35,795 nucleotides of DNA from Christensenella sp. UBA767 (GTDB taxonomy: Bacteria > Bacillota > Clostridia > Christensenellales > CAG-917). Shown piece by piece: positions 2,827-29,750 of this stretch (within the stretch, counting starts at the first letter, position 1; each line of letters opens with the position of its first letter). Position numbers and translations under genes: made by a program. Under the pieces are notes generated by a model. The model saw only the letters and a list, made by a program, of their open reading frames with translations, did not search any database and was not told the DNA's origin. Location: the NCBI GenBank assembly GCA_002297185.1, contig DBJV01000071.1, positions 1 to 35,795 of the forward strand, written 5' to 3'.

Positions 2827-2900
2827 TGGAGCGGGCGATGAGAATCGAACTCACGACTAAAGCTTGGGAAGCTTTCGTTTTACCATTAAACTACGCCCGC
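2827..2900 (-). tRNA. tRNA-Gly (anticodon CCC)
   Basis: Reverse complement gcgggcgtagtttaatggtaaaacgaaagcttcccaagctttagtcgtgagttcgattctcatcgcccgctcca. Cloverleaf folds by eye: 7-nt anticodon loop ttCCCaa, GTTCGATTC T-loop, encoded CCA. Confidence 0.9.
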
Positions 2901-3097: not shown

Positions 3098-6000
3098 ATG
3101 TACAAACCTGTAGAAACAAATCTTAATTTCGTTGACAGAGAAAAAGAAGTTCTCGAATTTTGGAAACAAGAGGACATTTTCAAAAAGAGCGTTGAAAAGA
3201 ATGAGGGCAATCCCGAATTCAGTTTTTACGACGGACCGCCGACGGCAAACGGCAAGCCGCACATCGGGCATATTCTTACCCGTGTTATGAAAGACATTAT
3301 CCCTCGTTACAAGACGATGAAGGGATATCACGTTTTGCGTAAGGCAGGCTGGGACACTCACGGACTTCCCGTAGAACTCGAAGTCGAAAAAATGCTCGGC
3401 ATAGACGGAAAACAAGAGATTGAAAAGTATGGCATCGAGCCTTTTATCAAAAAGTGCAAAGAATCCGTATGGAAATACAGCAACGAATGGCGCAAAATGT
3501 CCGACCGTATAGGTTATTGGGCGGATATGGACAATCCCTACGTCACGTACGATAACAACTACATCGAATCGGTGTGGTGGGCTATCAAGCAAATGGCGGA
3601 CAAGGGACTTATCTACAAAGGCTACAAAATCGTGCCTTATTGTCCTCGTTGCGGAACGGCTCTTTCTTCTCACGAAGTGGCGCAAGGCTACAAGGACGTG
3701 GAAGAGACTTCCGTATTCGTCAAATTTGCGCTCAAAGACGTGGAAAACACTTATTTCCTCGCTTGGACAACGACGCCTTGGACGCTTCCGTCCAACGTTG
3801 CGCTTTGTATGAACGGAAAAGAGGATTATACCAAGATTAAAGTTGGTGACGAGTATTATATACTCGCCGATGCGCTTATTCCGACGTTGTTTGAAGAAGG
3901 CAACTTTGAAAAAGTGGATACCAAGAAGGGCAGCGAGTACGAATACACCGAGTATATTCCGCTTTTCGATTACGAGACGGGCGCAAAGGAAAAGGCGTAC
4001 TATATCGTCAACGATTCTTACGTAACTCTTACCGACGGTACGGGTATCGTTCATATTGCTCCTGCATTCGGCGAGGACGACAGCAAGGTCGGCAAAAAAT
4101 ACAATCTCCCGTTCGTTCAAATGGTTGACGACAGAGGCAGATTCAAAGACGCAGTATATGATTTCAAGGGACTTTTCTGCAAGGACGCGGACAAGTACAT
4201 CATCGAGAAATTGAAGGGTGAAAACAAACTTTTCAAGACGCTCAGATTTACCCACAGTTATCCGTTCTGCTGGCGTTGCGATACTCCGTTGCTTTACTAT
4301 GCACGTTCAAGCTGGTTTGTGAAGATGACGGCGGTCAAAGAACAACTTCTCGTCGCAAACGATTCCGTAAACTGGATGCCCGATACCATCAAAAACGGTC
4401 GTATGGGCAACTTCCTCGAAAACGTCATTGACTGGGGCATTTCCCGTGAAAGATATTGGGGTACTCCGCTCCCGATTTGGGTGTGCAACAAGTGCGGAAA
4501 GATTCACGTTATCGGCTCGAGAGAGGAATTGCGTGAAAAAGCGCATCTCGACCACGACGTTGAATTGCATCGTCCGTATATCGATGAAGTTAAGTGGGAA
4601 TGCGAGTGCGGCGGAGAGATGGTTCGTACTCCCGAAGTGCTTGACTGCTGGTTCGATTCCGGTTCAATGCCGTTTGCACAATGGCATTATCCGTTTGAAA
4701 ATAAGGAAACGTTTGAAAAAGTGTTCCCTGCGGACTTCATTTCCGAGGCTATCGACCAAACGAGAGGCTGGTTCTATACCTTGCTTGCGGTCAATACGGT
4801 GCTTTTCGGACGCGCGCCTTTCAAAAACTGCATAGTTTTGGGACACGTCAACGACAAAGACGGCATCAAAATGTCCAAACATAAGGGCAACGTCGTAGAT
4901 CCGTGGACTGTTCTCGACAAGCAGGGCGCTGACGCTACGAGATGGTATTTCTATACCACCAGCGCGCCGTGGCTCCCGTCACGTTTCCATGCAGACACCG
5001 TAAGCGAGTCTCAACGCAAGTTTATGGGTACGCTTTGGAATACCTATGCGTTCTTCGTTCTCTATGCGGAAATCGATAAATTCAATCCCATGGAGCATAA
5101 ACTCGAAGATCAGCAATTGACGACTATGGACAAGTGGATTTTGTCAGGTCTCAATTCGCTCATCAAGTTCGTTGACGAAGGACTTAACGAATACAAGATC
5201 ACGGAGACTTCTCGTGCAATCGGCGACTTTGTGGATATCCTTTCCAACTGGTATGTACGCCGTTCGCGCGACCGTTTCTGGGGCAGCGATATGTCAAAGA
5301 ACAAAGAGGCGGCTTATACAACGCTTTATACCGTCCTTTCCACGTTGAGCAAGATTATTGCGCCGTACGTTCCGTTTATGGCGGAAGAGATTTATCAAAA
5401 TCTCGTGCGCAACTTCGATAAAGACGCACCCGAAAGCGTGCATCTTTGCTCTTTCCCCGTGGCAGACGAGAAGATGATCGATAAGAAACTCGAGACAGGC
5501 ATGGGCGACGTGCTTAAACTCGTCGTACTCGGCAGAGCCGCAAGGAACAAGTCCAACCTCAAGAACAGACAACCGCTTGCAAAACTCTTCTATAACGGCA
5601 GATACGAACTCCCGCAAAGCCTCAAAGAACTCGTCGAGGACGAACTCAACGTCAAGTCGGTCGAAGTTTCGGATACCAGCGACGGATTTATCAATTACGA
5701 ACTCAAGCCGCAACTTAAGACGCTCGGCCCCAAATACGGCAGTTTGCTCGGCGCAATCAGAAACGTATTGCAAGAGCGTGCTAGCGAAATCGTAGCAGCG
5801 GTCAAGAGAGGCGATTTGTTCAAATTCAACGCAAACGGCAGAGACGTCGAACTTTCGCAAGACGACTTGCTTATCAGCATGAAGAATAAAGAAGGATATT
5901 CCAGCGAAAGTGACGGAGAAACCACCGTTGTTCTCGATACCGCACTCAACGAAGAGCTTATTCTCGAGGGTGTGGAAAGAGAAATTGTATCAAAGATACA

Positions 6001-19100: not shown

Positions 19101-19693
19101 AAACGCTCAAAGAAACAGAGGAAAGATTGCAAGAGCAGACCGTTCAACGCGACGATATCCAAAAGGCATACGACGATATCGTCACCATTATCAACGAGTT
19201 GACGGGCGAGATGCAATCCAAATTCACGGGTGCATTCGACCAAATCAGCGAGAACTTCAAAGAGGTGTTCCAACAACTCTTTGGCGGTGGTAAAGGCGAG
19301 TTGCGCCTCAATATGCAAGACACTGATGACGTGCTTGAGGCAGGTATCGACATCTACGCCCAACCCCCGGGAAAGAAATTGCAAAACATCAGTCTTTTGA
19401 GCGGTGGCGAACAAGCGTTGACGGCTATCTCGATCCTGTTTGCTATCCTCAAACTTAAACCGATGCCGTTCTGCGTGCTTGACGAAATCGAGGCAGCACT
19501 CGACGACGCCAACGTCAACTTGTTTGCGGAATTTCTCAAAAAATTCAGCGACTACACGCAATTTATCGTCATCACGCACAGAAAACCGACCATGCGCCAC
19601 GCAGATACGATTTTCGGCGTTACGATGGAAGAGAAGGGCGTCACCAAGATCGTCTCCATCGAGTTTGAAGAGGCGGCCAAACACGCAAAATAA
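16103..19693 (+). CDS. smc: Chromosome segregation protein SMC
   Basis: Walker A GPNGCGKSN, long coiled coils, hinge, signature LSGGEQALTAI and Walker B FCVLDEIEAALD. TTG start 9 nt after AAGGTGG. Confidence 0.95.
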   Translation: MLNFVKIEARGFKSFADKIEIPFQEGVTAIIGPNGCGKSNVADAIRWTLGEQSAKSLRGKNMQDVIFAGTEKRKSMSYCEVSLTFNNSDQHIFPSMPFDEVVITRKLDRSGLSEYYINHNRVRMRDIISLFHDTGIGKEGYSIIGQGRVAEIMSAKPGDRRQIFEEAAGISKFRAQRTEAERKLEKTALNLETANQVIEEIQRQINPLRKQAETAQKYFELKEELKKNEVNLYIYNYENNQSIKQRIYDRLSVCEKDLKVKEMQFNECVKKYDDCIRESAGIDRIYDECNGELLTLKVDAARLEGEAGVLRERISHIQGEITRLNSELQSIDNQLDISAQLIAKAEEKKNAEFQVYLETSKEAEALQQKYSLITKSLAGAETDLETRNSEYIRSMEDLGVLKSNLSGFIAEKGINDERAKTLLALVNQQKARLDEELTNLAIYDGNVKSTKERMRNLMTEYNEALSTKLESQEAIKGYAEDIVSLNAKLGLAKGNLDLLTSVKNEYSGYQESVKRLMQDSKHDPVLASKIWGVLAEVITVPTDFEAAIEYSLGANMQNVLVESEREASDLINYLKQKGYGRVTFRPLTSCRPRTLTPENRGILTEPGCYGLASDLVKCDKKFDKFVQTLLGATVVVNNIDNAIRIFRKYNQSVKIVTLDGEIFATGGEITGGSRRTQTRGLLTQEAKIEQAQANLEKIKNNIALLNSQREESEQELSDCEARIEALNKEMSELRIENGLNEDKAKQSFEVTESLKVEISKNAEEYEIVKARIKELEEKISSIDQLEKVVSEKREEYNALLASSKSVSTDQKSEREQMAEQVTEIKVKLAGHKSVLDGIDNDLFRYNRDREQLEDEKLDIIASLKHEQQNLDNIHNAPEKTTFSKEDEARISALEKQISDLSERKRTISDEIVSLDQEKTRLSDERSALNEKKVRDEAMLENVDIEIRNQQTHILEEYDLTYASAVEFKDPEFKAYGALTVISDLKKSINRLGDVNPLALQTLKETEERLQEQTVQRDDIQKAYDDIVTIINELTGEMQSKFTGAFDQISENFKEVFQQLFGGGKGELRLNMQDTDDVLEAGIDIYAQPPGKKLQNISLLSGGEQALTAISILFAILKLKPMPFCVLDEIEAALDDANVNLFAEFLKKFSDYTQFIVITHRKPTMRHADTIFGVTMEEKGVTKIVSIEFEEAAKHAK

Positions 19694-19884
19694 TCCTAGA
19701 TTATTTGCGCCGAATGCTAAACACGCAAAATAATCGTTGCATAGGCAACGACATCGCACCGTTCGGTGCAACGTCGAGAGCCTTGCTTGATTATTTTGCC
19801 TCTACCGCGCAACCGATATATGCTATCAGAATAAGACGGATAAAAACTCCTGCCGCAGTTTCGCTATATCGCTTGCTTGGTGTG

Positions 19885-20023
19885 TGCGCACTTCGTGCGT
19901 ATATGGAATATTCCATAACTTGTGCCTTTGGCACAAATATCACTCTCGCTTTGCGAGAATATCACTTGCGCTTTGCGCAAATATCACTGCGACGAAGTCG
20001 CAATATCACTCCCAATAGTGATA
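19885..20023 (+). repeat. Hairpin/AATATCACT phased array 1 (4 exact 9-mers, 22-bp period) with palindromic leader
   Basis: 9-mers start at 19936, 19958, 19980 and 20002. Intervening hairpins are tgtgcc/ggcaca, ctcgc/gcgag, tgcgc/gcgca and gcgac/gtcgc. Leader is TATGGAATATTCCATA (19902-19917). Confidence 0.9.
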
Positions 20024-20036
20024 AAATAGGTGAGTT

Positions 20037-20930
20037 ATGAACTTTTTTCAAAAAATCATACAAGGTATAAAAAAGACCAAAGACGCGTTCTCAAAAAAGT
20101 TGTTCTTTGCGTTTTCCGCAAGGGAACTCGATGACGAGTTCTATGAAAATCTCGAAGAGGCTTTGTTGACGGCAGACGTTGGCGTTACGGCAACGGAAAA
20201 TCTTATCGAAGAACTCAAAAACGAGATTTTTGAAAAGAAAATCAAAAAGCCCGAAGATGCAAAAGAACTGCTTATCAATCTTATGATTGAGGACATCGAT
20301 TACGACATCCCCGAATATGAATATCCGCTCGTCATCCTGCTTTCGGGCGTGAACGGCGTTGGCAAAACCACCGCTATCGGCAAACTTGCGCATTACTTCA
20401 AAGAGCAGGGCAAGAGTGTTGTCGTTGCAGCAGCCGATACCTTCAGAGCCGCCGCAAGCGAGCAACTTGAGGTATGGGGACAACGTGCAGGCGTCAGAGT
20501 CATCCGTCACAACGAGGGCGCAGATCCTGCCGCTGTCGTATTCGATGCAATCTCTTCCGCAAAAGCCAAAGGCAACGACGTCATTTTGGTCGATACCGCA
20601 GGTAGACTCCACAACAAGAAAAACCTCATGGCGGAACTTCAAAAAATCTGTCGTGTCGTTGAGCGTGAATTGCCAAATGCCGACTTCCGCAAATACCTCG
20701 TTCTCGACGCAACGACGGGACAAAACGCCGTTGCGCAAGCGGAAATTTTCAGCGAAGATATCGACACCGACGGCATTATCCTCACCAAACTTGACGGAAC
20801 CGCAAAAGGCGGCGTAGTCCTTGCCATAAGCGAGGAAATCGGCTTGCCTGTGGTGTACGTAGGCGTGGGCGAGGGGATTGATGATCTTATTCCGTTCGAC
20901 GCCAATGACTTTATCCGAGCTTTGTTTTAA
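20037..20930 (+). CDS. ftsY: Signal recognition particle receptor FtsY (short NG-type)
   Basis: GVNGVGKTT, DTAGRL and TKLDGTAKGG motifs. RBS is AGGTGA. Confidence 0.95.
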   Translation: MNFFQKIIQGIKKTKDAFSKKLFFAFSARELDDEFYENLEEALLTADVGVTATENLIEELKNEIFEKKIKKPEDAKELLINLMIEDIDYDIPEYEYPLVILLSGVNGVGKTTAIGKLAHYFKEQGKSVVVAAADTFRAAASEQLEVWGQRAGVRVIRHNEGADPAAVVFDAISSAKAKGNDVILVDTAGRLHNKKNLMAELQKICRVVERELPNADFRKYLVLDATTGQNAVAQAEIFSEDIDTDGIILTKLDGTAKGGVVLAISEEIGLPVVYVGVGEGIDDLIPFDANDFIRALF

Positions 20931-21052
20931 TGTGCTATTTAGCGAATAACTGCGGCAGCACCACTTGCTCGTCCAGTCACGTACGTCTTGTACGTTAGAC
21001 TGTACGTTCAAGTGGTGCTTTCTTGTTCTTCATCTAAATATCGCATTAAAAC
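20924..21052 (+). repeat. Rod-like inverted-repeat element, complete copy B (~129 bp)
   Basis: Outer arms are gttttaatgtgctatttag (20924-20942) and ctaaatatcgcattaaaac (21034-21052). Inner 11-bp perfect stem is agcaccacttg (20957-20967) with caagtggtgct (21009-21019). The loop folds further (cagtc/gactg, acgtac/gtacgt). The left arm overlaps the ftsY stop codon. Confidence 0.8.
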
Positions 21053-21144
21053 GTTTCTCGTGTGGGGTATGGAGTGAAAAAATATTTATTCCATACATTA
21101 TGATAATACAATTTATATTTATATAAAATCAATAAAAATATCAG

Positions 21145-21179
21145 GGTGTCGAGCAAAAACGCTTGACACCTTTGTTTTT
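21145..21179 (+). terminator. Rho-independent terminator after ftsY, overlapping the ylxM -35
   Basis: ggtgtcgag / cttgacacc stem (one G-U pair) followed by TTTGTTTTT. Confidence 0.55.
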
Positions 21180-21191
21180 GAAGAGTATTAT
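21163..21191 (+). promoter_or_regulatory. ylxM-ffh promoter
   Basis: TTGACA (21163-21168), 17 nt, TATTAT (21186-21191). Confidence 0.5.
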
Positions 21192-21222
21192 AGTGTCAAG
21201 CAATGGAGATTGACACTCGATT

Positions 21223-21537
21223 ATGGATAGATTTGAAATTTCGGTTTTGAGAGGGTACTACGGTGCGCTCCTCACTCAAAGACAAAACGATATGCTCGTT
21301 ATGCACTATGACGAAGATTTGTCTTTCGGCGAAATTGCAAACATAGTCGGCGTCTCTCGTCAGGCGGTGCTTGACGGCATCAATAAGGGTGAAAAACACC
21401 TTTGCGAGTATGAGGATGCGCTCGGTCTTGCAAAAAAAGACAGGCAGATTCACTCGCTTTTGGACGAAGTGTCCGTGCATTGCGACGACGAGGGCAAAGC
21501 CGTCGTTGAAAAAATCAAAAAGTTATTGGAGGACTAA
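21223..21537 (+). CDS. ylxM: YlxM/UPF0122 putative HTH protein of the ffh operon
   Basis: LTQRQNDMLVMHYDEDLSFGEIANIVGVSRQAV sequence and the conserved position immediately upstream of ffh. Confidence 0.85.
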   Translation: MDRFEISVLRGYYGALLTQRQNDMLVMHYDEDLSFGEIANIVGVSRQAVLDGINKGEKHLCEYEDALGLAKKDRQIHSLLDEVSVHCDDEGKAVVEKIKKLLED

Positions 21538-22872
21538 ATGGCTCTTTTCGGAAGTTTGGCAGACAGAATGAATCACATATTCTCAAAACTTCGCAACAAA
21601 GGTAAGTTGACCGAACTTGAGATAAAACAAGCCATGCGCGAAATTCGCGTTGCTCTCTTAGAGGCGGACGTCAATTACAACGTTGTCAAAGATTTCACCA
21701 ATAGAGTGAGCGAGAAGGCTCTCGGGGAAGATATCCTCAAATCCCTCACGCCCGCACAACAAATAGTCAAAATCGTCAACGAGGAACTTTGTGCTTTGAT
21801 GGGCAGCACTCATCAAAAACTTGCCGTCAGCGACAAACAACCCACAATCTATATGATGTGTGGTTTGCAAGGCGCAGGCAAAACCACGATGTGTGGAAAA
21901 CTTGCTCAATACCTCAAAAAACAAAGCAAAAAGACGCTCCTTATCGCTTGCGACATTTATAGACCGGCAGCAATCCAACAACTCAAAGTCGTTGCAAAGA
22001 AAGCAGGGACGGAGTGCTTTGAAATGGGACAAATCGATCCCGTCAAGATTGCAAAAGCAGGCATCGAATATGCGCTCAAAAACGGTTACGACACGGTGAT
22101 TATCGATACGGCAGGTCGTTTGCACATAGACGAAAACTTGATGCAAGAGCTTATCAACATCAAGACCGCCGTCAAACCGACGGAAATTTTGCTCGTCGTT
22201 GACAGCATGACGGGACAAGATGCGGTTACGGTTGCGGATATGTTCAATCAAAAACTCGACATCACGGGCGTTATCATGACCAAACTCGACGGCGATACGA
22301 GAGGCGGCGCTGCGCTTTCAATCAAAGCGGTTACCGGCAAGCCGATCAAGTTCAGCGGCACGGGCGAGAAAATAGAAGATATCGAGCCGTTCCATCCCGA
22401 GCGTATGGCGTCTCGTATCCTCGGTATGGGCGACGTGCTTACGCTCATCGAGAAGGCGGAGCAAGCCATATCGCAAGAAGAGGCTCTCAAACTTCAAAAG
22501 AAACTCAAAGAAAACTCCTTCAATCTCGAAGATTATCTCTCTCAACTCGAGAGTATGAAGAAAATGGGCAATCTTCAAGATATGATGGCAATGATTCCGG
22601 GGCTTTCGGGCAAAATGAAAGGCAATCCGCAAATCGACGAAAATCAGATTGCAAGAACAAAGGCGATTATTCAATCAATGACTCCAAAAGAACGCCGCAA
22701 TCCCGAAATCATCAAAGCGTCCCAACGCAAGCGCATTGCAAAGGGTAGCGGAACGTCCATTCAAGAGGTCAATCAACTTCTCAAACAGTTTGAAATGACC
22801 AAAGATATGATGGCGCGTATGCAAAAGGGCGGTATAAAAGGACTTCGCGGTCTCAAAGGCTTGCCTTTCTAA
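21538..22872 (+). CDS. ffh: Signal recognition particle protein Ffh
   Basis: GLQGAGKTT, DTAGRL and TKLDGDTRGG motifs, followed by a Met-rich M domain. Confidence 0.96.
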   Translation: MALFGSLADRMNHIFSKLRNKGKLTELEIKQAMREIRVALLEADVNYNVVKDFTNRVSEKALGEDILKSLTPAQQIVKIVNEELCALMGSTHQKLAVSDKQPTIYMMCGLQGAGKTTMCGKLAQYLKKQSKKTLLIACDIYRPAAIQQLKVVAKKAGTECFEMGQIDPVKIAKAGIEYALKNGYDTVIIDTAGRLHIDENLMQELINIKTAVKPTEILLVVDSMTGQDAVTVADMFNQKLDITGVIMTKLDGDTRGGAALSIKAVTGKPIKFSGTGEKIEDIEPFHPERMASRILGMGDVLTLIEKAEQAISQEEALKLQKKLKENSFNLEDYLSQLESMKKMGNLQDMMAMIPGLSGKMKGNPQIDENQIARTKAIIQSMTPKERRNPEIIKASQRKRIAKGSGTSIQEVNQLLKQFEMTKDMMARMQKGGIKGLRGLKGLPF

Positions 22873-22942
22873 AAAGAAATAATATCGATTATATTAACAA
22901 CTATAATATAAAATAAATTATCACAAATGGAGGCTAACTGTT

Positions 22943-23191
22943 ATGGTTAAACTTAGACTCACCAGAATGGGCTCAACAAAAGCACCTTTCTATCGTATCG
23001 TTGCAATGGATTCTCGCAAAGCGCGTGACGGCAAGTACATCGATCAAATCGGTTACTACAATCCCGTTTCCGAACCCAAGCAAATCGTCATCGACGCCGA
23101 CAAAGCAAAACAATGGCTTGCAAACGGCGCTCAACCGACTGATACGGTTATGGGTTTGCTCATTCAACAAGGTATCGTTGAAAAGAAGTAA
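22943..23191 (+). CDS. rpsP: 30S ribosomal protein S16
   Basis: [21 protein letters not shown]. Confidence 0.95.
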
Positions 23192-23205
23192 TTTGGTGGC
23201 TTTAG

Positions 23206-23445
23206 ATGATTGAATTGGTCGAATATCTTGTTGCCTCGCTCGTTCCGGACGGTGATTACACCGTGGAACAAAGAGACGGTAACGGTGCAAGCGACATCGT
23301 TGTTACAATCGCAAAAAAGGACATCGGCAAAGTGATCGGCAAGCAGGGCAGAATTGCAAAAGCAATCCGCACTCTCGTCAAATCCGCAAGTGCAAAATCC
23401 GGTGCGAAATACAACGTTGTCATCGAAGAAAAAGATGAAATCTGA
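23206..23445 (+). CDS. khpA: KH-domain RNA-binding protein (YlqC/KhpA)
   Basis: IGKVIGKQGRIAKAIRTL (GXXG KH motif) and the conserved rpsP-rimM position. Confidence 0.85.
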   Translation: MIELVEYLVASLVPDGDYTVEQRDGNGASDIVVTIAKKDIGKVIGKQGRIAKAIRTLVKSASAKSGAKYNVVIEEKDEI

Positions 23446-23938
23446 ACTCACGATAGGCAAGGTTTTGAAACCGCGCGGTTTGAAAGGGGAACTCAAGATT
23501 GAGACTTATTCCTCTGATTCCGCACGGTTTTCTCGCCTTAAACAACTCAAAATCGACGGACAAGAGCATAGCGTCAAAAACATCTTGCTCGAAGGCGCAA
23601 TCGGATACGTTACGCTCGACGGTATCGACGACGTATATAAAGCCGAGGCATTGAGAGGCAAGTTTATCACCGCAAAAAGAGACGATTTGCCCAAACTTCC
23701 CGACGGCAAGTACTACATCGTGGATATGATTGGTCTCGACGTGTATGTAAACGGTGAGTGCGTGGGCGAAATCACGGACGTTTTGCAATACGGCTCGGCG
23801 GACGTGTATGTCGTAAGAAACGGCGATGCGAGTTTGAGTTTCCCTGCAATCAACGGACTTATCAAAGAAGTGGATTTGCAAGGCGGAAAAATGATGCTCG
23901 ACGGCACTATATTCAATCGCGTAGTGGTGTTCAACTGA
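23435..23938 (+). CDS. rimM: 16S rRNA processing protein RimM
   Basis: IGKVLKPRGLKGELKI plus a PRC barrel. Start trimmed to MKSELTIG (ATG 23435), which overlaps the khpA end by 11 nt. Confidence 0.9.
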   Translation: MKSELTIGKVLKPRGLKGELKIETYSSDSARFSRLKQLKIDGQEHSVKNILLEGAIGYVTLDGIDDVYKAEALRGKFITAKRDDLPKLPDGKYYIVDMIGLDVYVNGECVGEITDVLQYGSADVYVVRNGDASLSFPAINGLIKEVDLQGGKMMLDGTIFNRVVVFN

Positions 23939-23939
23939 T

Positions 23940-24659
23940 ATGAAATTTGACGTATTGACGATATTTCCGCAATATTTCGACGTCCTCAACGAAAGCCTTT
24001 TGGGAAAGGCAATCGAGGGGGGCAAATTTTGCGTTGACGTCGTAAATATCCGTGATTTTTCAAAGGATAAACACCTCAAAACCGACGATACCCCGTACGG
24101 TGGCGGTGCAGGCATGGTTATGACTCCCGACCCCATCGTAAGCGCGATAGAGGCGGTCGATCCACACCACGAGGCTTGGCGCGTGTATATGTCGCCAAGA
24201 GGCACCGTTCTCAATCAAGCCAAAGTCGAAAGCCTTGCCAAAGAAAAGCGCATTTTGATTTTGTGTGGCGATTACGAGGGCGTTGACCAACGTGCAATCG
24301 ACATCTGCATTGACGAGGAATTGTCCATAGGCGATTACGTGCTTACGGGCGGTGAATTGCCTGCTCTTGTTACGATAAACTGCGTTGCGAGATACATCGA
24401 CGGCGTTCTCGGCTCGGACGAAAGCACCAAGGAAGAAAGTTTCTCCAACGGACTTTTGGAATATCCGCAATACACCCGTCCCGAAGTGTATAGAGGTTAC
24501 GCCGTTCCCGAAGTATTGCTCGGCGGCAACCACAGCGACATTGAAAAATGGCGTCTTGAAAAGTCTCTCGAAGTTACGATGAAACGTCGCCCCGACCTGT
24601 TCCGACATCTCGATTTAGGCAAATTCCTGCCAACCAAGAAAAGAAAACGCAATCGTTAA
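23940..24659 (+). CDS. trmD: tRNA (guanine37-N1)-methyltransferase
   Basis: DDTPYGGGAGMVM and LSIGDYVLTGGELPA motifs. Confidence 0.95.
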   Translation: MKFDVLTIFPQYFDVLNESLLGKAIEGGKFCVDVVNIRDFSKDKHLKTDDTPYGGGAGMVMTPDPIVSAIEAVDPHHEAWRVYMSPRGTVLNQAKVESLAKEKRILILCGDYEGVDQRAIDICIDEELSIGDYVLTGGELPALVTINCVARYIDGVLGSDESTKEESFSNGLLEYPQYTRPEVYRGYAVPEVLLGGNHSDIEKWRLEKSLEVTMKRRPDLFRHLDLGKFLPTKKRKRNR

Positions 24660-24660
24660 A

Positions 24661-24775
24661 CGATATCGGAATTTTCCGCAACTCGCACGAAGTGCGAATA
24701 TCACTTTTAGCCGAAGGCTAAAAATATCACTCTCGCAAAGCGAGAATATCACTTGCGCTTTGTGCAAATATCACT
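24661..24775 (+). repeat. Hairpin/AATATCACT phased array 2 (4 exact 9-mers)
   Basis: Leader is atatCGGAATTTTCCGcaact. 9-mers start at 24697, 24723, 24745 and 24767. Hairpins are cgcac/gtgcg, tttagcc/ggctaaa, ctcgc/gcgag and tgcgc/gtgca. Confidence 0.9.
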
Positions 24776-24849
24776 TTTCTCTAAATTGCCATGAGAAATG
24801 TTTATTTACTCCTCGCAATTATATTGGATAAAAGTAAAAGGATTTCGTT

Positions 24850-25692
24850 TTGAACATACAATGGTTTCCCGGTCATATGACCAAGGCGATAAGAATGATG
24901 GAGGACAATCTCCGTCTTGTCGATGCGCTAATATACGTAATCGACGCAAGGGCAGTTTACTCTTGCGATAACCCTCTTTTCAACAAACTTTTGCAAGGTA
25001 AGAGGGTACTTTACGTATTCAACAAGTGTGATTTGGTGGAAAAATCCGACCTTGACGCATGGTGCGAACTTTTCAAAAAGCAGGGCAAACCGTATGTCAA
25101 AGCAATCGGCACGAGCGGCGACTGCTCACAAATCGTTGCAGGCTTAAAGCAAGTCGTGTCCGACAAGATCGAAAAATACGCCGCAAAAGGCGCGAAAATA
25201 TCCGTTAGAGCAATGGTTGTCGGTGTTCCCAACAGCGGAAAATCCACAATCATCAACTCAATGGTCAAAAAAGCAAAAGCGGTTACGGGCGACCGCCCGG
25301 GCGTTACGAGAGGTAAGCAATGGCTGTCAATCGACAATGTTGACTTTTTGGACACTCCCGGTACGCTCTGGGGCAAATTCGAAGATCAAAAAGTTGCGCA
25401 TCACCTTGCGTACATCGGCTCAATCAGAGACGATATCCTTGACGAAAGCGAACTTGCATACGATTTCCTCGACGAAATGAAATTGCTTTATCCGCAAAAT
25501 TTGCAACAAAGATACAACTTGCCCGAACTTAAAGAGCAAACGATTGATATTTTTGAAGATATCGCAATGTCACGCGGTTTCAAGGTGAAGGGCAACCAAC
25601 CCGACTACGACCGCACGGCACGAATGATAATCGACGAGTTCCGCAAAGGAAAACTGGGAAAAATGATGTTAGAACGCCCCGCCAAATTATAA
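24850..25692 (+). CDS. rbgA: Ribosome biogenesis GTPase A (YlqF)
   Basis: IQWFPGHMTKA, circularly permuted GTPase motifs NKCDL then GVPNSGKST then DTPG. TTG start after AAAGGA. Confidence 0.92.
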   Translation: MNIQWFPGHMTKAIRMMEDNLRLVDALIYVIDARAVYSCDNPLFNKLLQGKRVLYVFNKCDLVEKSDLDAWCELFKKQGKPYVKAIGTSGDCSQIVAGLKQVVSDKIEKYAAKGAKISVRAMVVGVPNSGKSTIINSMVKKAKAVTGDRPGVTRGKQWLSIDNVDFLDTPGTLWGKFEDQKVAHHLAYIGSIRDDILDESELAYDFLDEMKLLYPQNLQQRYNLPELKEQTIDIFEDIAMSRGFKVKGNQPDYDRTARMIIDEFRKGKLGKMMLERPAKL

Positions 25693-25776
25693 GTGGAGTA
25701 TTCCACAATTTGCACGCGCAGTAACGAAATGGTGGGACACCCACACCCAATGTAAATGCTATGGAATATTCCATTT

Positions 25777-25876
25777 GTCATTCCGAGGGAACGAAGTGAC
25801 CGTGGGAATCCAGCGTAGCGTTATGCGCCTACGGCTAGATTGCCACGTCGCAATATGTATTGCTCCTCGCAATGAC
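25777..25876. repeat. Pair of inverted REP-like palindromic units (BIME-like)
   Basis: Unit 1 (+) is gtcattCCgagg-N12-cgtgGGaatc (25777-25810). Unit 2 (-) is gtcattGCgagg-N17-cgtgGCaatc (25838-25876). The CC/GG versus GC/GC difference is compensatory. Confidence 0.7.
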
Positions 25877-25885
25877 ATAAGGAAG

Positions 25886-26022
25886 ATTGAAATATTCCAA
25901 AACTCGCACAAAGTGCGAATATCACTTTTTGTGAAAGCAAAAAATATCACTTGCGCTGAGCGCAAATATCACTCTCGCAACGCGAGAATATCACTGCACG
26001 TTTAGTGCAATATCGTTTCACT
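25886..26022 (+). repeat. Hairpin/AATATCACT phased array 3 (4 exact 9-mers plus 1 degenerate)
   Basis: Leader is TTGAAATATTCCAAaact. 9-mers start at 25918, 25943, 25965 and 25987, with degenerate aatatcgtttcact at 26009. Hairpins are cgcac/gtgcg, ttttgt-gaaa-gcaaaa, tgcgc/gcgca, ctcgc/gcgag and gcac/gtgc. Confidence 0.9.
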
Positions 26023-26023
26023 T

Positions 26024-26632
26024 ATGGTAAAACCTGAAGAACTAATGACGTATGAAAATCAACTTCTCGACAAAGGTTATCGCTATATTTGCGGCGTCGA
26101 TGAAGTGGGCAGAGGACCGCTTGCAGGTCCTGTTACTTGCACTGCCGTGATTATGGATTTGACCGATTTGATTGACGGCGTAAACGACAGCAAAAAGGTG
26201 AGCAAAAAGAAGAGGGAAAAACTCTTCGAAGTCATCAAATCCAAGGCGATTGCGGTATCCACCGTATCGTACGACAATCACAAAATTGATGAGATGAACA
26301 TTCTCAACGCCACAAAAGCGTGCATGGCGGAGGCAATCATGTCTCTCGACGTCAAGCCGGATATCGTAATCGTCGATGCGTTGCAACTCGATATTCCGTA
26401 TAAAACGTTCGGAATTATCCACGGCGACGCACTTTCTTATTCCATCGCGTCCGCATCCATAATCGCAAAAGTCACGAGAGACACGTATATGGAGAAGATG
26501 GCGCTCAAGTATCCTCAATACGACTTTGAACACAATATGGGTTACGGCACGGCAAAGCATATCGCAGCGCTCAAAGAGTTCGGCGCAACGCCCATTCATA
26601 GAAAGAGTTTTATAGGTAATTTCGTCAAATGA
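26024..26632 (+). CDS. rnhB: Ribonuclease HII
   Basis: GVDEVGRGPLAGPV and DSKK motifs. No SD precedes ATG 26024; an in-frame ATG at 26045 is an alternative start. Confidence 0.9.
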   Translation: MVKPEELMTYENQLLDKGYRYICGVDEVGRGPLAGPVTCTAVIMDLTDLIDGVNDSKKVSKKKREKLFEVIKSKAIAVSTVSYDNHKIDEMNILNATKACMAEAIMSLDVKPDIVIVDALQLDIPYKTFGIIHGDALSYSIASASIIAKVTRDTYMEKMALKYPQYDFEHNMGYGTAKHIAALKEFGATPIHRKSFIGNFVK

Positions 26633-27265: not shown

Positions 27266-27604
27266 ATGAACATTATCGACACAATCGAAAGAGAAGGCAT
27301 GAAACAAAACTTGCCTGTAATCGCAATCGGCGACCAAGTCAAGGTAAACGTCAAGGTCGTTGAAGGAACAAGAGAACGTATTCAAACTTACGAAGGCGTT
27401 GTCATTGCAAAGAAGAACGGCGGTATCCGTGAAACCATCGTCGTACGTCGTGTTACATTCGGCGTTGGCGTTGAAAGAACGTTCCCGATCCATTCACCCA
27501 AGATCGACAGCATCCAAGTTGTCCGTCACGGCAAAGTAAGACGCGCAAAACTTTATTACTTGAAAGAAAGAACCGGTAAAGCCGCAAAACTCAAAGAAGT
27601 CTAA
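27266..27604 (+). CDS. rplS: 50S ribosomal protein L19
   Basis: [28 protein letters not shown]...[19 protein letters not shown] is AGGAGG. Confidence 0.95.
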
Positions 27605-27632: not shown

Positions 27633-29750
27633 ATGAAGAAAAAGTTGATTATTATAAGTGCAATGGTGCTAGTTGTTATGCTAGCACTTTTCGCATTTAC
27701 CGCTTGCAACAACGATACGAGCGACGTCGGTGAAGAGCTTATCACCAACGGCAACTTCTCGGCATTCAAAGACAAGAAGTTTGACGGTTGGACGACGTCG
27801 TCCTCAAGCACGGTATTCGGCGCGGCAAACGAGTCGGACGATAGCGACAATCAAACGCTTTACATCGACAACTCTTCCGCAGGATACAACTATCTCAAAC
27901 AAACGGTCAAAGTTTCCACGAACAAGATTTACAAAGTCACCGTCGATTTCAAAATCAATGCGGAATTGTCCAACAAAACGGGCGCATACGTGACTTTCCT
28001 TGAAAACGTTGACTACAAATTCATCGCTCACAGCGAAAAAACGCCGGGATTTGTTACCAGCACTTTCTACGTAAGACCGAAGAATACGGACTACCTCACA
28101 ATCGCCCTCTGCTTGGGTTCCGAGGAAAACAACTGCAAAGGCAAAGTGTATTTCGACAACGTGTCTATGCAAAGAGTTGAAGAGGCTCCGGAAGGTTTCA
28201 CCGTTTATGACTTCAAGAAGGCAAGAACGGTCAACACCAACACCAACGCAAGCGGTATTACGTTTGTCGTGATGCTTACGGTATTCGGCGTGGCAGCACT
28301 TGCTCTCGCTTACATCCTCGTAAGACGCACGTATGCAAGAAAGGACGCATTCGTCGATTTCGGCACGACGTCAGTCTATGACAAGAAAGCAAAGACGACG
28401 GTGAAGTGGTATCAAAACAACTGGTTCATCTTAGTGATGATTTTGCTCGGCGCATTCCTTACAAGACTTGCATTCTTGCTCTCCATGTACGGCATGGGCG
28501 GCGACATGACAAGTGTCATCACTCTTGCAAAGAACACGCTCGCGGCAAAGAACGGTTTGTTCAACTACTACGCAAACAACGCAAGCTCCGCATACGCACC
28601 GGGCGCACTCTATATCCTCACGATTTTGGGCTATGCAAGCAAGAACCTTGACCTTATGTCAACTTCCATCTTGCTCCGCTTTATCAACGTGATTGCGGAT
28701 ATGGCTGTTGTCGCAATGATTTTCTGCTACGGTAAGAAATACGTCGGCAACAAACTCGCAACGATTTATGCAGGACTTTACGCACTCCTTCCGTTCGCGC
28801 TCCTCTCAAGCAGTATCAGCGCAACGTTTGAAAGTGTGCTTATCGCACTCATCATCGCGTCTCTCATTTTGATGATAGAGAAGAAGTACATCTCCACGTA
28901 TTTCGTTATGACGCTTGCGGCAGTCCTCGACATCAGAGCGCTTGCAATTGCACCTATCATCGTCGGCTACTTTGTGTATATGTACATCAAAGACAACGAC
29001 AACAAGAAGAAATTCACTTCCAACAGAGCGAAAATCGTCTTTGGTCTTGTGGCAACTATCGTTTTGGCATACTTGCTCACACTTCCGGCGGCTATCAACC
29101 AAGTCAAGGCAGGGGACGCATTCTTCGGCTTTAAGGTTATGGTCAACGAGATGACCAACACCTTGTATTTCACAAGAGACGCATTCAACCTCTACGGTAT
29201 GGTTGCGATGAACGGCAAGTACTCACAACAAAGCGTCAACATCCTCAACCTCATCTTCTTGCTCGTACTCGAGGCATACGTTATCTCGCTTTATTTCAAG
29301 AATCGCAACAAACAAGAACTCTTGTTGCTCGCGTCCTTCACACTTGCGGTTATCGCAGTGTTCACAATCAAAGTGACATACACGTATCTCTATTTGTCAC
29401 TCGCTCTCGCACTCATGTACACCATGGTAAGCGGCGACAAGAGAATGTTCCTCGTCTCCGGCGGTATCGCGACGCTTGGCTTTATCAACTATGGTCAACT
29501 TATGAACCAAAGCGGTTTTGTCAAACTCGGTCAAGTTACAAGCGCAGTTATGAGCTTTGAGACGACAAGCCCGTTCTACATCGTGTTCAGCGTGGCGGCA
29601 GTACTCCTCATCGGCTACTATGCTTACGTGACGTACTCCATCACCAACAACACCAAGATTGTGGATATCAAAGCAATGCCTCAATCTCTCACAGCGACGT
29701 TAAAGAACTTCTTTATGACAAAAGTAGAGAAGAAGAAAGACGTTGAATAA
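27633..29750 (+). CDS. Membrane protein with signal/lipobox-like N-terminus, CBM_4_9-like beta-sandwich domain and polytopic GT-C-like (PMT_2/GT87-like) glycosyltransferase domain
   Basis: MKKKLIIISAMVLVVMLALFAFTAC, then NGNFS...W...KVYFDNVSMQRV (CBM4/9-type pattern), then roughly 12 or more TM segments. The first outside loop carries GGDM...YAPGALYIL. Function is inferred from pattern only. Confidence 0.45.
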   Translation: MKKKLIIISAMVLVVMLALFAFTACNNDTSDVGEELITNGNFSAFKDKKFDGWTTSSSSTVFGAANESDDSDNQTLYIDNSSAGYNYLKQTVKVSTNKIYKVTVDFKINAELSNKTGAYVTFLENVDYKFIAHSEKTPGFVTSTFYVRPKNTDYLTIALCLGSEENNCKGKVYFDNVSMQRVEEAPEGFTVYDFKKARTVNTNTNASGITFVVMLTVFGVAALALAYILVRRTYARKDAFVDFGTTSVYDKKAKTTVKWYQNNWFILVMILLGAFLTRLAFLLSMYGMGGDMTSVITLAKNTLAAKNGLFNYYANNASSAYAPGALYILTILGYASKNLDLMSTSILLRFINVIADMAVVAMIFCYGKKYVGNKLATIYAGLYALLPFALLSSSISATFESVLIALIIASLILMIEKKYISTYFVMTLAAVLDIRALAIAPIIVGYFVYMYIKDNDNKKKFTSNRAKIVFGLVATIVLAYLLTLPAAINQVKAGDAFFGFKVMVNEMTNTLYFTRDAFNLYGMVAMNGKYSQQSVNILNLIFLLVLEAYVISLYFKNRNKQELLLLASFTLAVIAVFTIKVTYTYLYLSLALALMYTMVSGDKRMFLVSGGIATLGFINYGQLMNQSGFVKLGQVTSAVMSFETTSPFYIVFSVAAVLLIGYYAYVTYSITNNTKIVDIKAMPQSLTATLKNFFMTKVEKKKDVE

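Follow-up and report, generated by a model that had tools for sequence, protein, structure and literature searches.

A hairpin array at the trmD-rbgA junction of Christensenella sp. UBA767 as a probable member of a dispersed Gut-1-type repeat family linked to an S23p protein gene

RESULTS

A four-unit array of hairpins and 9-mers lies between trmD and rbgA

The window analyzed here is the whole 35,795-nucleotide stretch of contig DBJV01000071.1 from Christensenella sp. UBA767. Between trmD and an rbgA/ylqF-like GTPase gene, it carries an array (array 2) composed of a palindromic leader and four units, each with a hairpin followed by an exact copy of the 9-mer AATATCACT (Table 1). The original prediction, which was made from the sequence alone, had placed a leader and four such units at these positions, and all of them were present. 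As it had also described, the array starts 2 nt past the trmD stop codon and ends 74 nt before the TTG start of rbgA, which has an AGGA ribosome-binding site. The units of array 2 are spaced at 26, 22, and 22 nt, and the gene order and start context of rbgA are conserved in relatives. In a promoter/terminator scan, we did not detect any plus-strand terminator or promoter between trmD and rbgA, nor any convincing promoter or terminator belonging to the arrays on either strand; minus-strand "terminator-like" matches at the arrays were the array hairpins themselves and nothing else.

Table 1. Positions of array 2, the two related arrays, and neighboring genes in the window
Feature	Position	Strand	Description
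Array 1, smc-ftsY spacer	19900..20010	+	Leader GGAATATTCC at 19905-19914; 9-mers at 19936, 19958, 19980, 20002
trmD, 5' neighbor of array 2	23940..24659 (stop codon 24657-24659)	+	Pfam tRNA_m1G_MT, E=1e-59
Array 2 leader	24661..24683	+	Palindrome CGGAATTTTCCG at 24667-24678, then caACT at 24679-24683
Array 2 proper	24684..24775	+	Four units: 5-7 bp hairpin (C-G closed, 3-nt loop) plus AATATCACT
Array 2 hairpin 1	24684-24696	+	cgcac-gaa-gtgcg
Array 2 hairpin 2	24706-24722	+	tttagcc-gaa-ggctaaa
Array 2 hairpin 3	24732-24744	+	ctcgc-aaa-gcgag
Array 2 hairpin 4	24754-24766	+	tgcgc-ttt-gtgca, one G-T pair
Array 2 9-mers, exact AATATCACT	24697, 24723, 24745, 24767	+	One after each hairpin
Gut-1 (RF01706) match, array 2	24693-24776	-	45.7 bits, with E=4e-8 in a 300-nt search and E=8.6e-7 in a 6.5-kb search
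rbgA/ylqF-like GTPase gene, 3' neighbor of array 2	24850..25692	+	Pfam MMR_HSR1; TTG start at 24850
Array 3, rbgA-rnhB spacer	25889..26022	+	Leader GAAATATTCCAAAACT; 9-mers at 25918, 25943, 25965, 25987
rplS	27266..27604	+	Pfam Ribosomal_L19, E=1e-46; context only, outside the element

Array 2 is of the same family as two further arrays in the window, and all three share one orientation, with 12 of 12 9-mers on the plus strand. The first hairpin is common to arrays 2 and 3, and a degenerate fifth unit of array 3 (gcacgtttagtgc plus AATATCgtttCACT) abuts the rnhB ATG. Exact AATATCACT occurs 12 times in the window, four times in each of the three arrays and nowhere outside them. With at most one mismatch allowed, the 9-mer was found 18 times versus 7.7 +/- 2.9 times in shuffled sequence, and none of 100 shuffles reached 18. 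Tandem Repeats Finder reported part of array 1 only because the units are too divergent. We rejected a CRISPR array due to the 9-nt repeat, the hairpin spacers drawn from a shared repertoire, and the absence of cas genes from the window.

Array presence does not track the position of rplS

In B. subtilis-type genomes, rplS sits directly after trmD. The original prediction was right that the junction occupied here by array 2 is the site of rplS in those genomes and that rplS lies farther downstream in the window, and it had proposed that the array is linked to this relocation. Our synteny comparison of 67 trmD loci did not bear out this link. About 40 species in the clade, with TrmD identity as low as 58% (L123-L161), share the order trmD-rbgA-rnhB-yraN-rplS, and in the synteny map the position after yraN is clade-typical for rplS. 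Nearly all of these species lack an array after trmD and often have a plain terminator instead, which is the pattern that the prediction itself had named as a sign of coincidence. Furthermore, one species (L121) inside the array-bearing group has lost array 2 and kept the gene order, without visible consequence. With arrays that are a genome-wide repeat and nothing in favor but positional coincidence in this window, we rejected the rplS link on this synteny, and a mechanistic tie between the array and displacement of rplS from the trmD junction is next to inconceivable.

The stems of the arrays covary around conserved 9-mers

To describe the units of the family, we considered 376 spacers between 9-mers from the window and its relatives. 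Terminal stems of 4 bp or longer were present in 304 of them versus 8 of 376 after shuffling, and 287 distinct stems occurred. The spacers are 9 to 18 nt long, so the period varies from 18 to 27 bp, which argues for looped-out hairpins over phased double-stranded DNA sites. The array stems covary: in a 30-module alignment, 99.2% of cells were paired versus 78.1% when shuffled (0 of 500 shuffles reached 99.2%), with changes on both sides in 9 of 16 pairs and 87 compensatory cells.

The loop-closing pair was C-G in 87 of 90 hairpins. GNRA loops lay on the AATATCACT strand in right and isolated arms (29:0) and were mirrored in left arms (0:24), and G-T mismatches outnumbered A-C mismatches by 12:1 in isolated arms. 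C-GNA-G triloops are classic hyperstable DNA mini-hairpins; UNCG loops did not occur in the modules. In 160 of 161 modules, the complementary strand, which is the one modeled by Gut-1 (see below), was more stable as RNA by 6 to 7 kcal/mol, owing to pairing between its linker halves via two G-U pairs. The strand signals thus conflict, with linker G-U pairs and minimum free energy pointing to the Gut-1 strand and GNRA/GNA loops and stem wobbles pointing to the opposite strand.

Array 2 belongs to a dispersed intergenic family

Matches to the module included 86 distinct modules among those listed, and strict-pattern copies numbered at least 32 in UBA7571 (the closest genome), at least 22 in CAVANK01, and at least 15 in UMGS1366. 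A module consists of a half-palindromic leader, AACT, and usually four units, each with a C-G-closed hairpin with a GNA or GNRA loop and a 9-mer; arrays cap at about four units, with tens of arrays per genome. The family has a position-specific consensus for the leader, U1, U2, and U3, and its linker variants include AATATCACT, AATATAACT, AATAACACT, ACATCAC, and ATGTAAT. The consensus leader, TATGGAATATTCCACAACT, equals two half-leaders, AGTTGAGGAATATT and GAGTATTCCACAACT, joined, and in two loci (L193 and L286) these halves flank the protein gene described below; likewise, the leader palindrome in the window is the sum of the two half-leaders of gene-flanking arms. In our first scan, 113 of 148 arrays had an inverted partner arm.

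All copies seen were intergenic, and modules occurred at dozens of unrelated loci, for example, 5' of a thioredoxin-like gene or between convergent genes. Orphan copies favored convergent intergenic regions (30 versus 10 divergent). No tie of orientation to transcription or replication was found with either tandem gene pairs (20 sense and 12 antisense) or GC skew (45:33); since orientation is random, not all copies can have a sense-RNA role. After clustering 629 neighboring ORFs, we did not find any transposase or RAYT enriched near modules, and the genes between inverted module pairs were ordinary. Neither a target-site duplication nor an empty/filled site pair was found for the module. Carriage by phages or plasmids was rejected, as 18 of 19 viral matches, in which the 9-mer occurred in tandem without hairpins, were unrelated tandem repeats and no plasmid match to the modules was found.

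Orthologs of array 1 were found in one related genome (L120), of array 2 in two (L120 and L122), and of array 3 in three (L120, L121, and L122). The genes flanking the arrays are 86 to 91% identical in nucleotide sequence between the compared genomes, which therefore represent different species, and 37 to 42% of 4-fold degenerate sites in flanking genes differ between the window and these three relatives. Orthologous 9-mers differ at only about 2% of sites and are strongly conserved. Such near-perfect 9-mers at orthologous sites over about 40% neutral divergence suggest constraint at each locus, which gene conversion between copies could mimic. Array 2 is old at the trmD-rbgA junction yet dispensable. 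Between sister species, we observed that modules are gained and lost, that units are shuffled, and that modules nest with two other families of repeats; the 74-nt gap after array 2 is a product of such lineage-specific turnover, as the array in L120 abuts the rbgA ribosome-binding site.

The window arrays are related to the Gut-1 motif

Gut-1 (RF01706) was previously known from just 43 human-gut metagenome reads and has been in Rfam since 2010 without an organism, copy number, gene link, or function (PMC2864571). At the gathering threshold, Rfam detected only the SRP RNA and one tRNA in the whole window and did not detect Gut-1. Minus-strand matches to Gut-1 at array 1 (35.5 bits), array 2 (Table 1), and array 3 (49.2 bits) had E-values of 1e-7 to 3e-4, and all three arrays, at 35 to 49 bits, fall short of the gathering score of 50 bits; the Gut-1 family is thus seen here only via E-value thresholds and the full elements of relatives. 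In these full elements, the left arms score 58 to 64 bits, over the gathering score, and the right arms of these elements share the 9-mer and unit design of the window arrays, indicating homology to true Gut-1 members. The flanks of the original Gut-1 seed alignment have the same two-arm layout, with a right arm as in the window family. Read as their reverse complement, the window arrays have at least three covarying hairpins and GUGAWAU-type linkers, as Gut-1 requires. Our analysis newly assigns Gut-1 to Christensenellales and Oscillospirales genomes, where it occurs as a directional repeat in dispersed copies and has a link to a protein gene.

The repeat family is tightly linked to an S23p/IVP gene

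The gene linked to the family encodes a 114- to 117-aa S23p/23S-IVS/Avd-family protein, here called IVP (PF05635, 97 bits; TIGR02436, 107 bits), which matches PDB entry 2RLD (E=2e-29), a structure crystallized with five chains. S23p forms a homopentameric toroid, and its gene lies in IVS elements whose borders are complementary arms (PMC4990558). PF05635 is similar to Avd (PMC10053308), a positively charged barrel of five subunits with a structured RNA element as its binding partner (bioRxiv 10.1101/2023.10.23.563531).

We collected 80 IVP loci by protein similarity alone, 77 of which had enough upstream sequence for analysis. The repeat family is tightly linked to this gene: 76 of the 77 species had either a full element no more than 260 nt upstream of the gene or two arms flanking it, and module density was 1.87/kb within 300 nt of the IVP gene versus 0.031/kb elsewhere in the same loci. 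Curated Gut-1 matches end 35 to 165 nt upstream of the IVP start on the sense strand of IVP. In UBA7571-type cassettes (L193, L254, L264, and L286), two inverted arms flank the IVP ORF, which for the 117-aa protein of UBA7571 lies at 3058-3411 of L193, and diverged IVP paralogs carry diverged linkers (L292 and L264). In Oscillospirales, a conserved TGnTATAAT promoter of the IVP gene is located downstream of the whole element, which is therefore outside the IVP mRNA; a TATAAT in the center of these elements has no usable -35 and is absent altogether from the window leaders.

The context of the IVP cassette is variable: the largest shared flank cluster comprises 2 of 80 loci, and a tRNA or tmRNA gene adjoins 16 of the 80. 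We did not find a conserved neighbor of the IVP gene, such as a reverse transcriptase, in the 80 loci, and a diversity-generating retroelement (DGR) was rejected on this basis. A defense system was likewise rejected, as the IVP protein had no PADLOC match. The window does not contain an IVP gene, and array 2 is therefore gene-less.

DISCUSSION

Array 2 very probably belongs to a dispersed Gut-1-type repeat family and has no link to the position of rplS. Regarding what it does, we give about an even chance to a model in which array 2 is a solitary gene-less arm, or "orphan module," that represents a copy of the nucleic acid partner of the pentameric IVP protein. The canonical family copy is the one tied to the IVP gene, and Rfam Gut-1 is the mirror-image arm of the same element. 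The repeated 9-mers, spaced by hairpins of arbitrary sequence, may serve as a multivalent ligand of the ring-shaped pentamer and would be read single-stranded, which at this locus would mean a trmD-rbgA read-through transcript with AAUAUCACU linkers. Gene-less arrays 1 to 3 may have arisen by IVS/MITE-like spread with unit shuffling between copies. The likelihood that IVP is the trans-acting partner of the arrays falls a little below even, and the proposal that RNA is the active form at the trmD-rbgA locus is more doubtful. The IVP protein could instead be mere cargo or could use the element solely for its own regulation. The conflicting strand signals, the random orientation of modules, the position of the Oscillospirales element outside the IVP mRNA, the absence of an IVP gene from the window, the loss of array 2 from L121, and the four exact 9-mers per arm versus five subunits in the pentameric protein all count against the model. 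Any effect of array 2 on trmD or rbgA expression is probably modest since a sister species has lost the array.

A more specific proposal, which we advance only tentatively, is that a stand-alone Avd-like (S23p) pentameric toroid has the arrays as its specific multivalent single-stranded ligand, binds one 9-mer with each subunit, and forms with the arrays a previously unrecognized repeat-protein system. An IVS-like element would have moved out of the rRNA genes and spread tens of binding platforms over operon spacers and intergenic regions, with trmD-rbgA among them.

Several other explanations compete with a ligand of IVP. The arrays may be purely selfish REP/MITE-like DNA, consisting of nonautonomous IVS-type remnants with no host role; we consider this unlikely, though worthy of serious weight. 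The hairpins and strand-specific loops would then be traces of an intermediate of transposition or repair in single-stranded DNA, or of quasi-palindrome correction, with the IVP gene as cargo or a mobilization factor. Tens of copies per genome with a common consensus fit selfish DNA well, as do orientation that is random relative to genes and replication, enrichment in convergent 3' regions, turnover by gain, loss, shuffling, and nesting, and the variable context of IVP cassettes, many beside tRNA or tmRNA genes. The hyperstability of C-GNA-G triloops in DNA and the absence of UNCG loops point the same way. IVSs themselves have been described as selfish or mobile elements (PMC4990558). However, the modules are not associated with a transposase or RAYT, they lack a detected target-site duplication or empty/filled pair, and orphan arrays persist at orthologous sites, a pattern that suggests constraint unless gene conversion mimics it. 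Weinberg et al. graded Gut-1 as a likely noncoding RNA (PMC2864571), which would make array 2 a trans-acting small RNA produced from the minus strand, in AGUGAUAUU sense, and antisense to the trmD-rbgA spacer. Although the Rfam model matches this strand, which also folds better as RNA and has conserved linker G-U pairs, we found no minus-strand promoter at the arrays, and terminator-like matches there were only hairpins. The GNRA/GNA loops and stem wobbles favor the other strand, the window scores are below the gathering threshold, and sRNA genes do not typically occur as tens of differing copies, randomly oriented and at 3' ends; an sRNA is improbable.

Considering that the three window arrays are sense oriented, lie 26 to 74 nt 5' of start codons in one transcription-compatible block, and are kept at these junctions in four species, with array 2 of L120 abutting the rbgA ribosome-binding site, each could be a locus-specific cis-regulatory RNA within the ribosome-biogenesis operon, serving rbgA, ftsY, or rnhB as an attenuator, a processing or stabilizer cassette, or a ribosome standby site. 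Such a role is quite improbable, as modules also occur between convergent genes, antisense in operons, and beside unrelated genes, about 40 relatives have the same operon without arrays, and L121 has lost array 2. Alternatively, four phased 9-bp protein sites could form a double-stranded DNA iteron or operator regulating adjacent promoters, much as the canonical copy would act on the IVP promoter, and the exact 9-mers, the modal period of 22 bp (about two helical turns), and the canonical element directly 5' of the IVP core promoter are consistent with this idea. Phasing is not constant, however, because spacing of 18 to 27 bp destroys it; covarying palindromic spacers and strand-specific loops are left unexplained, and convergent 3' regions, rather than promoter regions, are the preferred sites of orphan copies. 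An iteron is thus highly improbable.

To our knowledge, S23p/23S-IVS proteins, for which crystal structures have existed since 2006, have no function outside that of Avd in DGRs. If true, our ligand proposal would give both stand-alone S23p proteins and the orphan Gut-1 motif their first function. The link between the motif and the S23p gene merges these two orphans into one testable binding hypothesis, with a 115-nt array and a 117-aa protein as its substrates. Some Rfam "structured sRNA" families may likewise be one-strand models of repeat-element arms. For annotation, such arrays in core operons are best treated as family repeats rather than as locus-specific regulators or rearrangement scars.

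Comparison with known systems

The likeness to CRISPR is superficial, as both have a short exact repeat alternating with variable segments at a regular period. CRISPR repeats of 23 to 50 nt are separated by unique nonpalindromic spacers and accompanied by cas genes or a leader, whereas the repeats here are 9 nt, separated by 9- to 18-nt self-complementary hairpins, and lack cas genes.

REP/BIME and REPIN-RAYT systems are closer, as they also are multicopy intergenic hairpins enriched at 3' ends and between convergent genes and occur as singlets and inverted doublets. Like REPIN-RAYT, the family has one gene-linked copy per genome, many gene-less copies, and a hairpin/linker mosaic. In REPs, however, the hairpin is conserved and linkers vary, whereas here the linker is conserved and stems vary. 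The flanked gene in REPIN-RAYT encodes a Y1/HUH transposase, and the one here encodes a four-helix-bundle protein without known catalytic activity; with variable stems and no RAYT gene flanked, the family falls outside RAYT systems.

Reverse complementing AATATCACT gives the Gut-1 linker (A)GUGA(A/U)AU(U), and hairpins that vary and covary are present in both. The Rfam model covers just the left arm, in the opposite sense, whereas the window contains solitary right-type arms with another leader (GGAATATTCC).

The 23S IVSs of Leptospira, Coxiella, and Xanthomonas share the PF05635/TIGR02436 protein family with the elements described here (PMC4990558), and complementary arms border their ORF just as they do in UBA7571-type cassettes, a likeness that concerns these cassettes and not the solitary window arm. 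The Coxiella IVS also has short tandem repeats just 5' of its ORF, as here (PMC4990558). In contrast, 23S IVSs sit inside the 23S rRNA gene and have a simple 28-bp stem, whereas the elements here are intergenic, often just past a tRNA, tmRNA, or 5S gene, have modular arms of hairpins and 9-mers, and include many gene-less copies dispersed in the genome. Of the features that define an IVS, which include excision by RNase III, insertion in helix 25 or 45 of the 23S rRNA gene was not seen, the copies being intergenic, and a PF05635/TIGR02436 ORF is absent from array 2 and present in the canonical family copy.

Unlike Avd loci in DGRs, the 80 IVP loci have no reverse transcriptase or template/variable repeats nearby, and the Avd ligand is a single stem-loop, whereas the one proposed here is a repeated array. 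What Avd offers is a homologous pentameric barrel that recognizes a structured, cis-encoded nucleic acid beside its own gene, the kind of recognition that we propose for IVP and its arrays.

Array 2 does not account for the displacement of rplS

Direct inspection of the sequence bore out exactly the original description of array 2 at 24661-24775, one of three hairpin and 9-mer arrays in the smc-ftsY, trmD-rbgA, and rbgA-rnhB spacers (arrays 1, 2, and 3). The 9-mer AATATCACT is present in 12 exact copies, all on the + strand and four in each array, and a scan of the whole window found no exact copy outside these junctions. Shuffled controls fold far less well than any of the three array regions (z = -5.3 to -6.1).

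Features of array 2 and other elements in the window
Feature	Position	Strand	Basis or comment
Large SRP RNA, bacterial	226-489	+	160.7 bits
tRNA	2830-2900	-	
17-nt direct repeat AAACACGCAAAATAATC	19679-19695, 19719-19735		first copy holds smc stop codon; second 40 nt downstream
Third repeated segment ctaccgcgcaaccgatatatgctatcag...cgctatatcgcttgcttggtgtgtgcgc	~19802-19889		upstream of array 1
Intrinsic terminator	21143-21172		overlaps promoter; between ftsY and ylxM-ffh
Near-consensus promoter TTGACA-17-TATTAT	21163-21191		
trmD stop codon	24657-24659	+	Pfam tRNA_m1G_MT
Array 2 leader palindrome CGGAATTTTCCG, then caACT	24667-24678	+	sequence
Array 2 hairpins, in order: cgcac-gaa-gtgcg, tttagcc-gaa-ggctaaa, ctcgc-aaa-gcgag, tgcgc-ttt-gtgca		+	sequence
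Exact AATATCACT 3' of each array 2 hairpin	24697, 24723, 24745, 24767	+	
rbgA/ylqF-type GTPase, TTG start	24850	+	74-nt gap from array 2
Second repeat family TGTCATTCCGAGGGAACGAAGTGACCGTGGGAATC...GATTGCCACG...CCTCGCAATGACA	25776-25877		imperfect terminal inverted repeats, ~13 nt
rplS	27266-27604	+	Pfam L19; downstream of rnhB and yraN
705-aa ORF	27633-29750		directly after rplS; no Pfam match

The original prediction linked array 2, filling the junction where rplS normally sits, to the relocation of rplS, and this link was not borne out. We mapped trmD, rbgA, rnhB, yraN, and rplS in 67 trmD loci from species-level genomes, among which the MAG "Christensenella sp. UBA7571" is closest, with 99% identity in TrmD. 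About 40 species of the Christensenellales clade, down to 58% TrmD identity (locus L159), have the order trmD-rbgA-rnhB-yraN-rplS, and the trmD-rplS order occurs in outgroups (Elusimicrobia, Actinomycetota, and one Clostridiales MAG, L158). Exact-motif arrays at the compared trmD loci are limited to the three closest genomes (L120, L121, and L122); the remaining relatives have unrelated trmD-rbgA spacers, often with a terminator overlapping the trmD stop. Array presence therefore does not track rplS displacement across these junctions, and rplS was displaced long before the arrays arose and independently of them. The original prediction had itself named displacement without arrays as evidence that the link is coincidental. 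In six relatives without array 2 (L126, L127, L134, L139, L160, and L161), the trmD stop lies inside an intrinsic-terminator stem (aaaaaacaccgtcgaTAAtcgacggctttttt), so that trmD and rbgA are probably separate transcription units there, unlike in the window. The 705-aa ORF keeps its position throughout the clade, where relatives have 26-93% identity.

Flanking genes of the window and L120-L122 share 86-91% nucleotide identity and differ at 37-42% of fourfold-degenerate sites, and by these measures they are different species. Arrays occupy the same three junctions in this group with 9-mers about 98% identical, and loops, stems, and unit content differ between orthologous arrays. Array 2 stems, for example, are cgcac, tttagcc, ctcgc, and tgcgc in the window versus cgcac, tttagcc, gttgc, gcgac, and tgtgc in L120, and L122 has six units. 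Hairpin cassettes such as gcgac-GAA-gtcgc reappear in further arrays, and array evolution therefore involves shuffling of units or gene conversion among copies. L121 lacks array 2, keeping only the last hairpin beside the rbgA ribosome-binding site, with another repeat in the spacer.

Array 2 belongs to a dispersed Gut-1 family as a conserved orphan arm

In a scan of 185,579 species genomes, at least 119 loci had two 9-mers at a distance of 11-19 nt. Among the matches listed, nearly all were from gut or rumen Clostridia (Acutalibacteraceae, Oscillospiraceae, Ruminococcus, and Christensenellaceae), and the four-unit array was usually the right half of a two-arm element of ~190 nt. In order, this element consists of a strong hairpin or terminator, AGTTATATTCGCC, a series of hairpins and AGTGATATT (to which the 9-mer is reverse complementary) in alternation, the center AGTT...GGCGAATAT, and then AATATCACT in four copies alternating with hairpins. 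A permissive Rfam search identified the element as the Gut-1 motif (RF01706), whose consensus of three hairpins between four (A)GUGA(A/U)AU(U) linkers is the mirror image of the window units. Scores are 58-64 bits for left arms, exceeding the gathering score of 50, and 31-48 bits for right arms, which match on the opposite strand; window arrays 3, 2, and 1 match on the minus strand at 49.2, 45.7, and 35.5 bits, respectively. The sole paper describing Gut-1 reports 43 human-gut metagenomic examples and gives no organism or function (PMC2864571); the unmodelled AAUAUCAC arm is present in the flanks of the published alignment. Array 2 is best filed as the solitary opposite arm, below the Rfam threshold and with a distinct leader, of this known but uncharacterized family.

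The family is a dispersed repeat rather than one specific to this locus. Searching exhaustively for the leader plus two units gave 83 stretches with 86 distinct modules (arms of leader and hairpin/9-mer units), and these cluster in a small group of related genomes (UBA7571, at least 32; CAVANK01, 22; UMGS1366, 15; CAKQUV01, 8). The position-specific consensus of the modules is TATGGAATATTCCACAACT, CGCAC-RAA-GTGCG, TTTGGC-GCAA-GCCAAA, CTCGC-NNN-GCGAG, and a variable fourth unit. Modules favor 3'-end regions and avoid promoter regions, lying between convergent genes (30), in tandem pairs in the sense (20) or antisense (12) orientation, or between divergent genes (10). Module orientation showed no bias relative to transcription (P = 0.2) and was random relative to GC skew (45:33), and a search of phage and plasmid sequences indicated that neither carries the family. 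Of the full elements examined from the first scan (Oscillospirales), about one-third lie directly after tRNA, tmRNA, or 5S genes.

Gut-1 elements accompany stand-alone S23p genes

Examining ORFs between neighboring module pairs, we found a 117-aa ORF exactly between two outward-facing modules in loci L193 and L254. It encodes a 23S_rRNA_IVP protein (PF05635, 97 bits; NCBIfam TIGR02436, "four helix bundle protein"), with 2RLD, five chains in the crystal, as the nearest solved structure (E = 2e-29). The IVP family was also the top, though weak, neighbor cluster in the first scan (7 loci). We then gathered IVP relatives by protein patterns alone. Among the best 80 of 582 relatives, one per species, an element lies ≤260 nt upstream of the IVP start codon in 76 of 77 loci whose upstream sequence was long enough, and module density is 1.87 per kb beside the IVP gene versus 0.031 per kb elsewhere in the same loci. 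This linkage of Gut-1 to stand-alone Avd-like S23p genes is near-universal and previously unreported; we found no published link between the two, and the Weinberg supplements are silent on the IVP/S23p family.

The usual layout is a hairpin or terminator, left arm, center, right arm, 15-25 nt, TGnTATAAT, a short or absent leader, and ATG, with the AATATCACT strand as the sense strand of the IVP gene. Curated Gut-1 matches above threshold share the sense strand of the IVP gene, with their ends 35-165 nt before the start (loci L286, L309, and L322). In cassettes of the UBA7571 type, the ORF lies between the arms (module, AGTTGAGGAATATT, ORF, GAGTATTCCACAACT, module), and the two half-leaders joined form GGAATATTCC, the leader palindrome of the window arrays. 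Across the 80 loci, flanking genes were not conserved between species (largest shared cluster, 2 loci), and we found no reverse transcriptase or other partner beside the IVP gene; 16 cassettes directly follow a tRNA or tmRNA gene. A diverged paralogue in L292 (1200-2180) accompanies a hairpin array with other linkers (GTGATGTA/ACATCAC), and a 38%-identical paralogue in L264 (reverse strand, 5374-5718) one with the linker ATGTAAT, which hints that the pairing extends beyond the AATATCACT subfamily. Because a search of the window found no IVP-type protein gene, its arrays are orphan copies.

Paired stems and directional loops in the arms

Terminal stems of ≥4 bp are present in 304 of 376 spacers, versus 8 after shuffling, and 287 spacer sequences are distinct. 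Arm size tops out at four 9-mers (72 arrays of four and one of five). In an unambiguous alignment of 30 equal-length modules, 99.2% of cells are paired versus 78.1% after shuffling, a value reached by 0 of 500 shuffles. Both-sided changes affect 9 of 16 pairs (87 compensatory cells), and sliding the register drops pairing to 25-52%. C-G closes the loop in 87 of 90 hairpins. The spread of spacer lengths, 9-18 nt, points to hairpins looped out of a single-stranded nucleic acid.

GNRA tetraloops are found 29:0 on the AATATCACT strand in right and isolated arms and mirrored, 0:24, in left arms; triloops of GAA, GCA, and GTA share this directionality, and our loop census of the arms found no UNCG loops. 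Non-Watson-Crick positions in the variable stems of isolated arms are G-T over A-C by 12:1. The directional loops and G-T bias together indicate that the full element consists of two directional modules in a head-to-head arrangement. Against this stands the pairing of the 9-mer halves around each hairpin (..UAUU/AGUG..), which is possible only on the complementary Gut-1 strand (U-A, U-G, A-U, and U-G); as RNA, that strand is more stable by 6-7 kcal/mol in 160 of 161 modules, and with DNA parameters both strands are equal in stability. The AAUAUCACU strand leaves the 9-mers no choice but to be single stranded between short, well-capped hairpins, and on the other strand they are largely taken up into longer stems. 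Either strand, as RNA or as single-stranded DNA, may be the one that folds.

Repeats and signals around the arrays

The second repeat is inserted in the array 3 leader palindrome (flanks 25763-25773 and 25889-25899), with GGAATATTCCA and GAAATATTCCA on either side resembling a target duplication. Further copies take the place of array 2 in L121, lie 5' of array 1 in L120, and are present in L031 and L264; array 2 of L122 contains a 66-nt fragment between duplicated GGAATTTTCCGCAACT. The leader palindrome may be an insertion target of this element. The third segment is found again between rbgA and rnhB in L121 and L122 and between smc and ftsY in L120, and the 17-nt direct repeat could be a duplication scar at the smc 3' end.

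In array 1, the final 9-mer (TATCACT) and AGTGATA (20017-20023) are complementary and can form a 7-bp hairpin (20004-20023); this "anti-repeat" hairpin lies directly upstream of the ftsY ribosome-binding site and has no counterpart in arrays 2 and 3. Within 25996-26026, the rnhB ATG (26024) lacks a recognizable Shine-Dalgarno sequence, and hairpin-AATATCGTTTCACTT-ATGG at the rnhB start is a degenerate fifth unit kept in all four array-bearing species. The one-mismatch 9-mer CATATCACT (219-227) overlapping the SRP RNA 5' end is probably due to chance. The three orphan modules fall in one 6-kb stretch (19900-26022) of translation- and SRP-related genes, versus about one per 50 kb genome-wide in UBA7571; with the elements and IVP cassettes that follow tRNA, tmRNA, or 5S genes, this amounts to a preference for stable-RNA and translation loci. 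The terminator and promoter between ftsY and ylxM-ffh split the block into at least two transcription units.

The 9-mers as a possible multivalent ligand

PF05635 is similar to Avd, the accessory protein of diversity-generating retroelements (PMC10053308), which is a pentameric, positively charged barrel in contact with a dedicated structured RNA element (bioRxiv 10.1101/2023.10.23.563531). Other family members (S23p) are encoded within 23S rRNA intervening sequences, selfish elements with complementary arms at their borders that are cut by RNase III; the Xanthomonas S23p is a homopentameric toroid (PMC4990558). We tentatively propose, at slightly less than an even chance, that the 9-mer repeats, with hairpins of arbitrary sequence between them, would form a multivalent ligand of the pentameric IVP protein. 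At trmD-rbgA the 9-mers would be presented in the trmD-rbgA transcript, since we detected neither a terminator nor a promoter on the + strand between these genes. Because L121 has lost array 2, the effect of the array on trmD or rbgA expression is probably small.

The main rival, a purely selfish IVS- or MITE-like repeat whose hairpins serve a single-stranded DNA step, appears less likely to us. Double-stranded DNA iterons are a weaker explanation, as spacers of 9-18 nt rule out helical phasing. Also weaker is a minus-strand sRNA, as Rfam curates Gut-1. An operon-specific cis-regulator is likewise weaker for a family with such varied gene contexts.

The Gut-1/S23p gene linkage makes two old open questions experimentally tractable. 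The Coxiella IVS carries tandem heptamer repeats directly upstream of its S23p ORF (PMC4990558), and at the IVP loci described here a hairpin/9-mer element lies upstream of the ORF.
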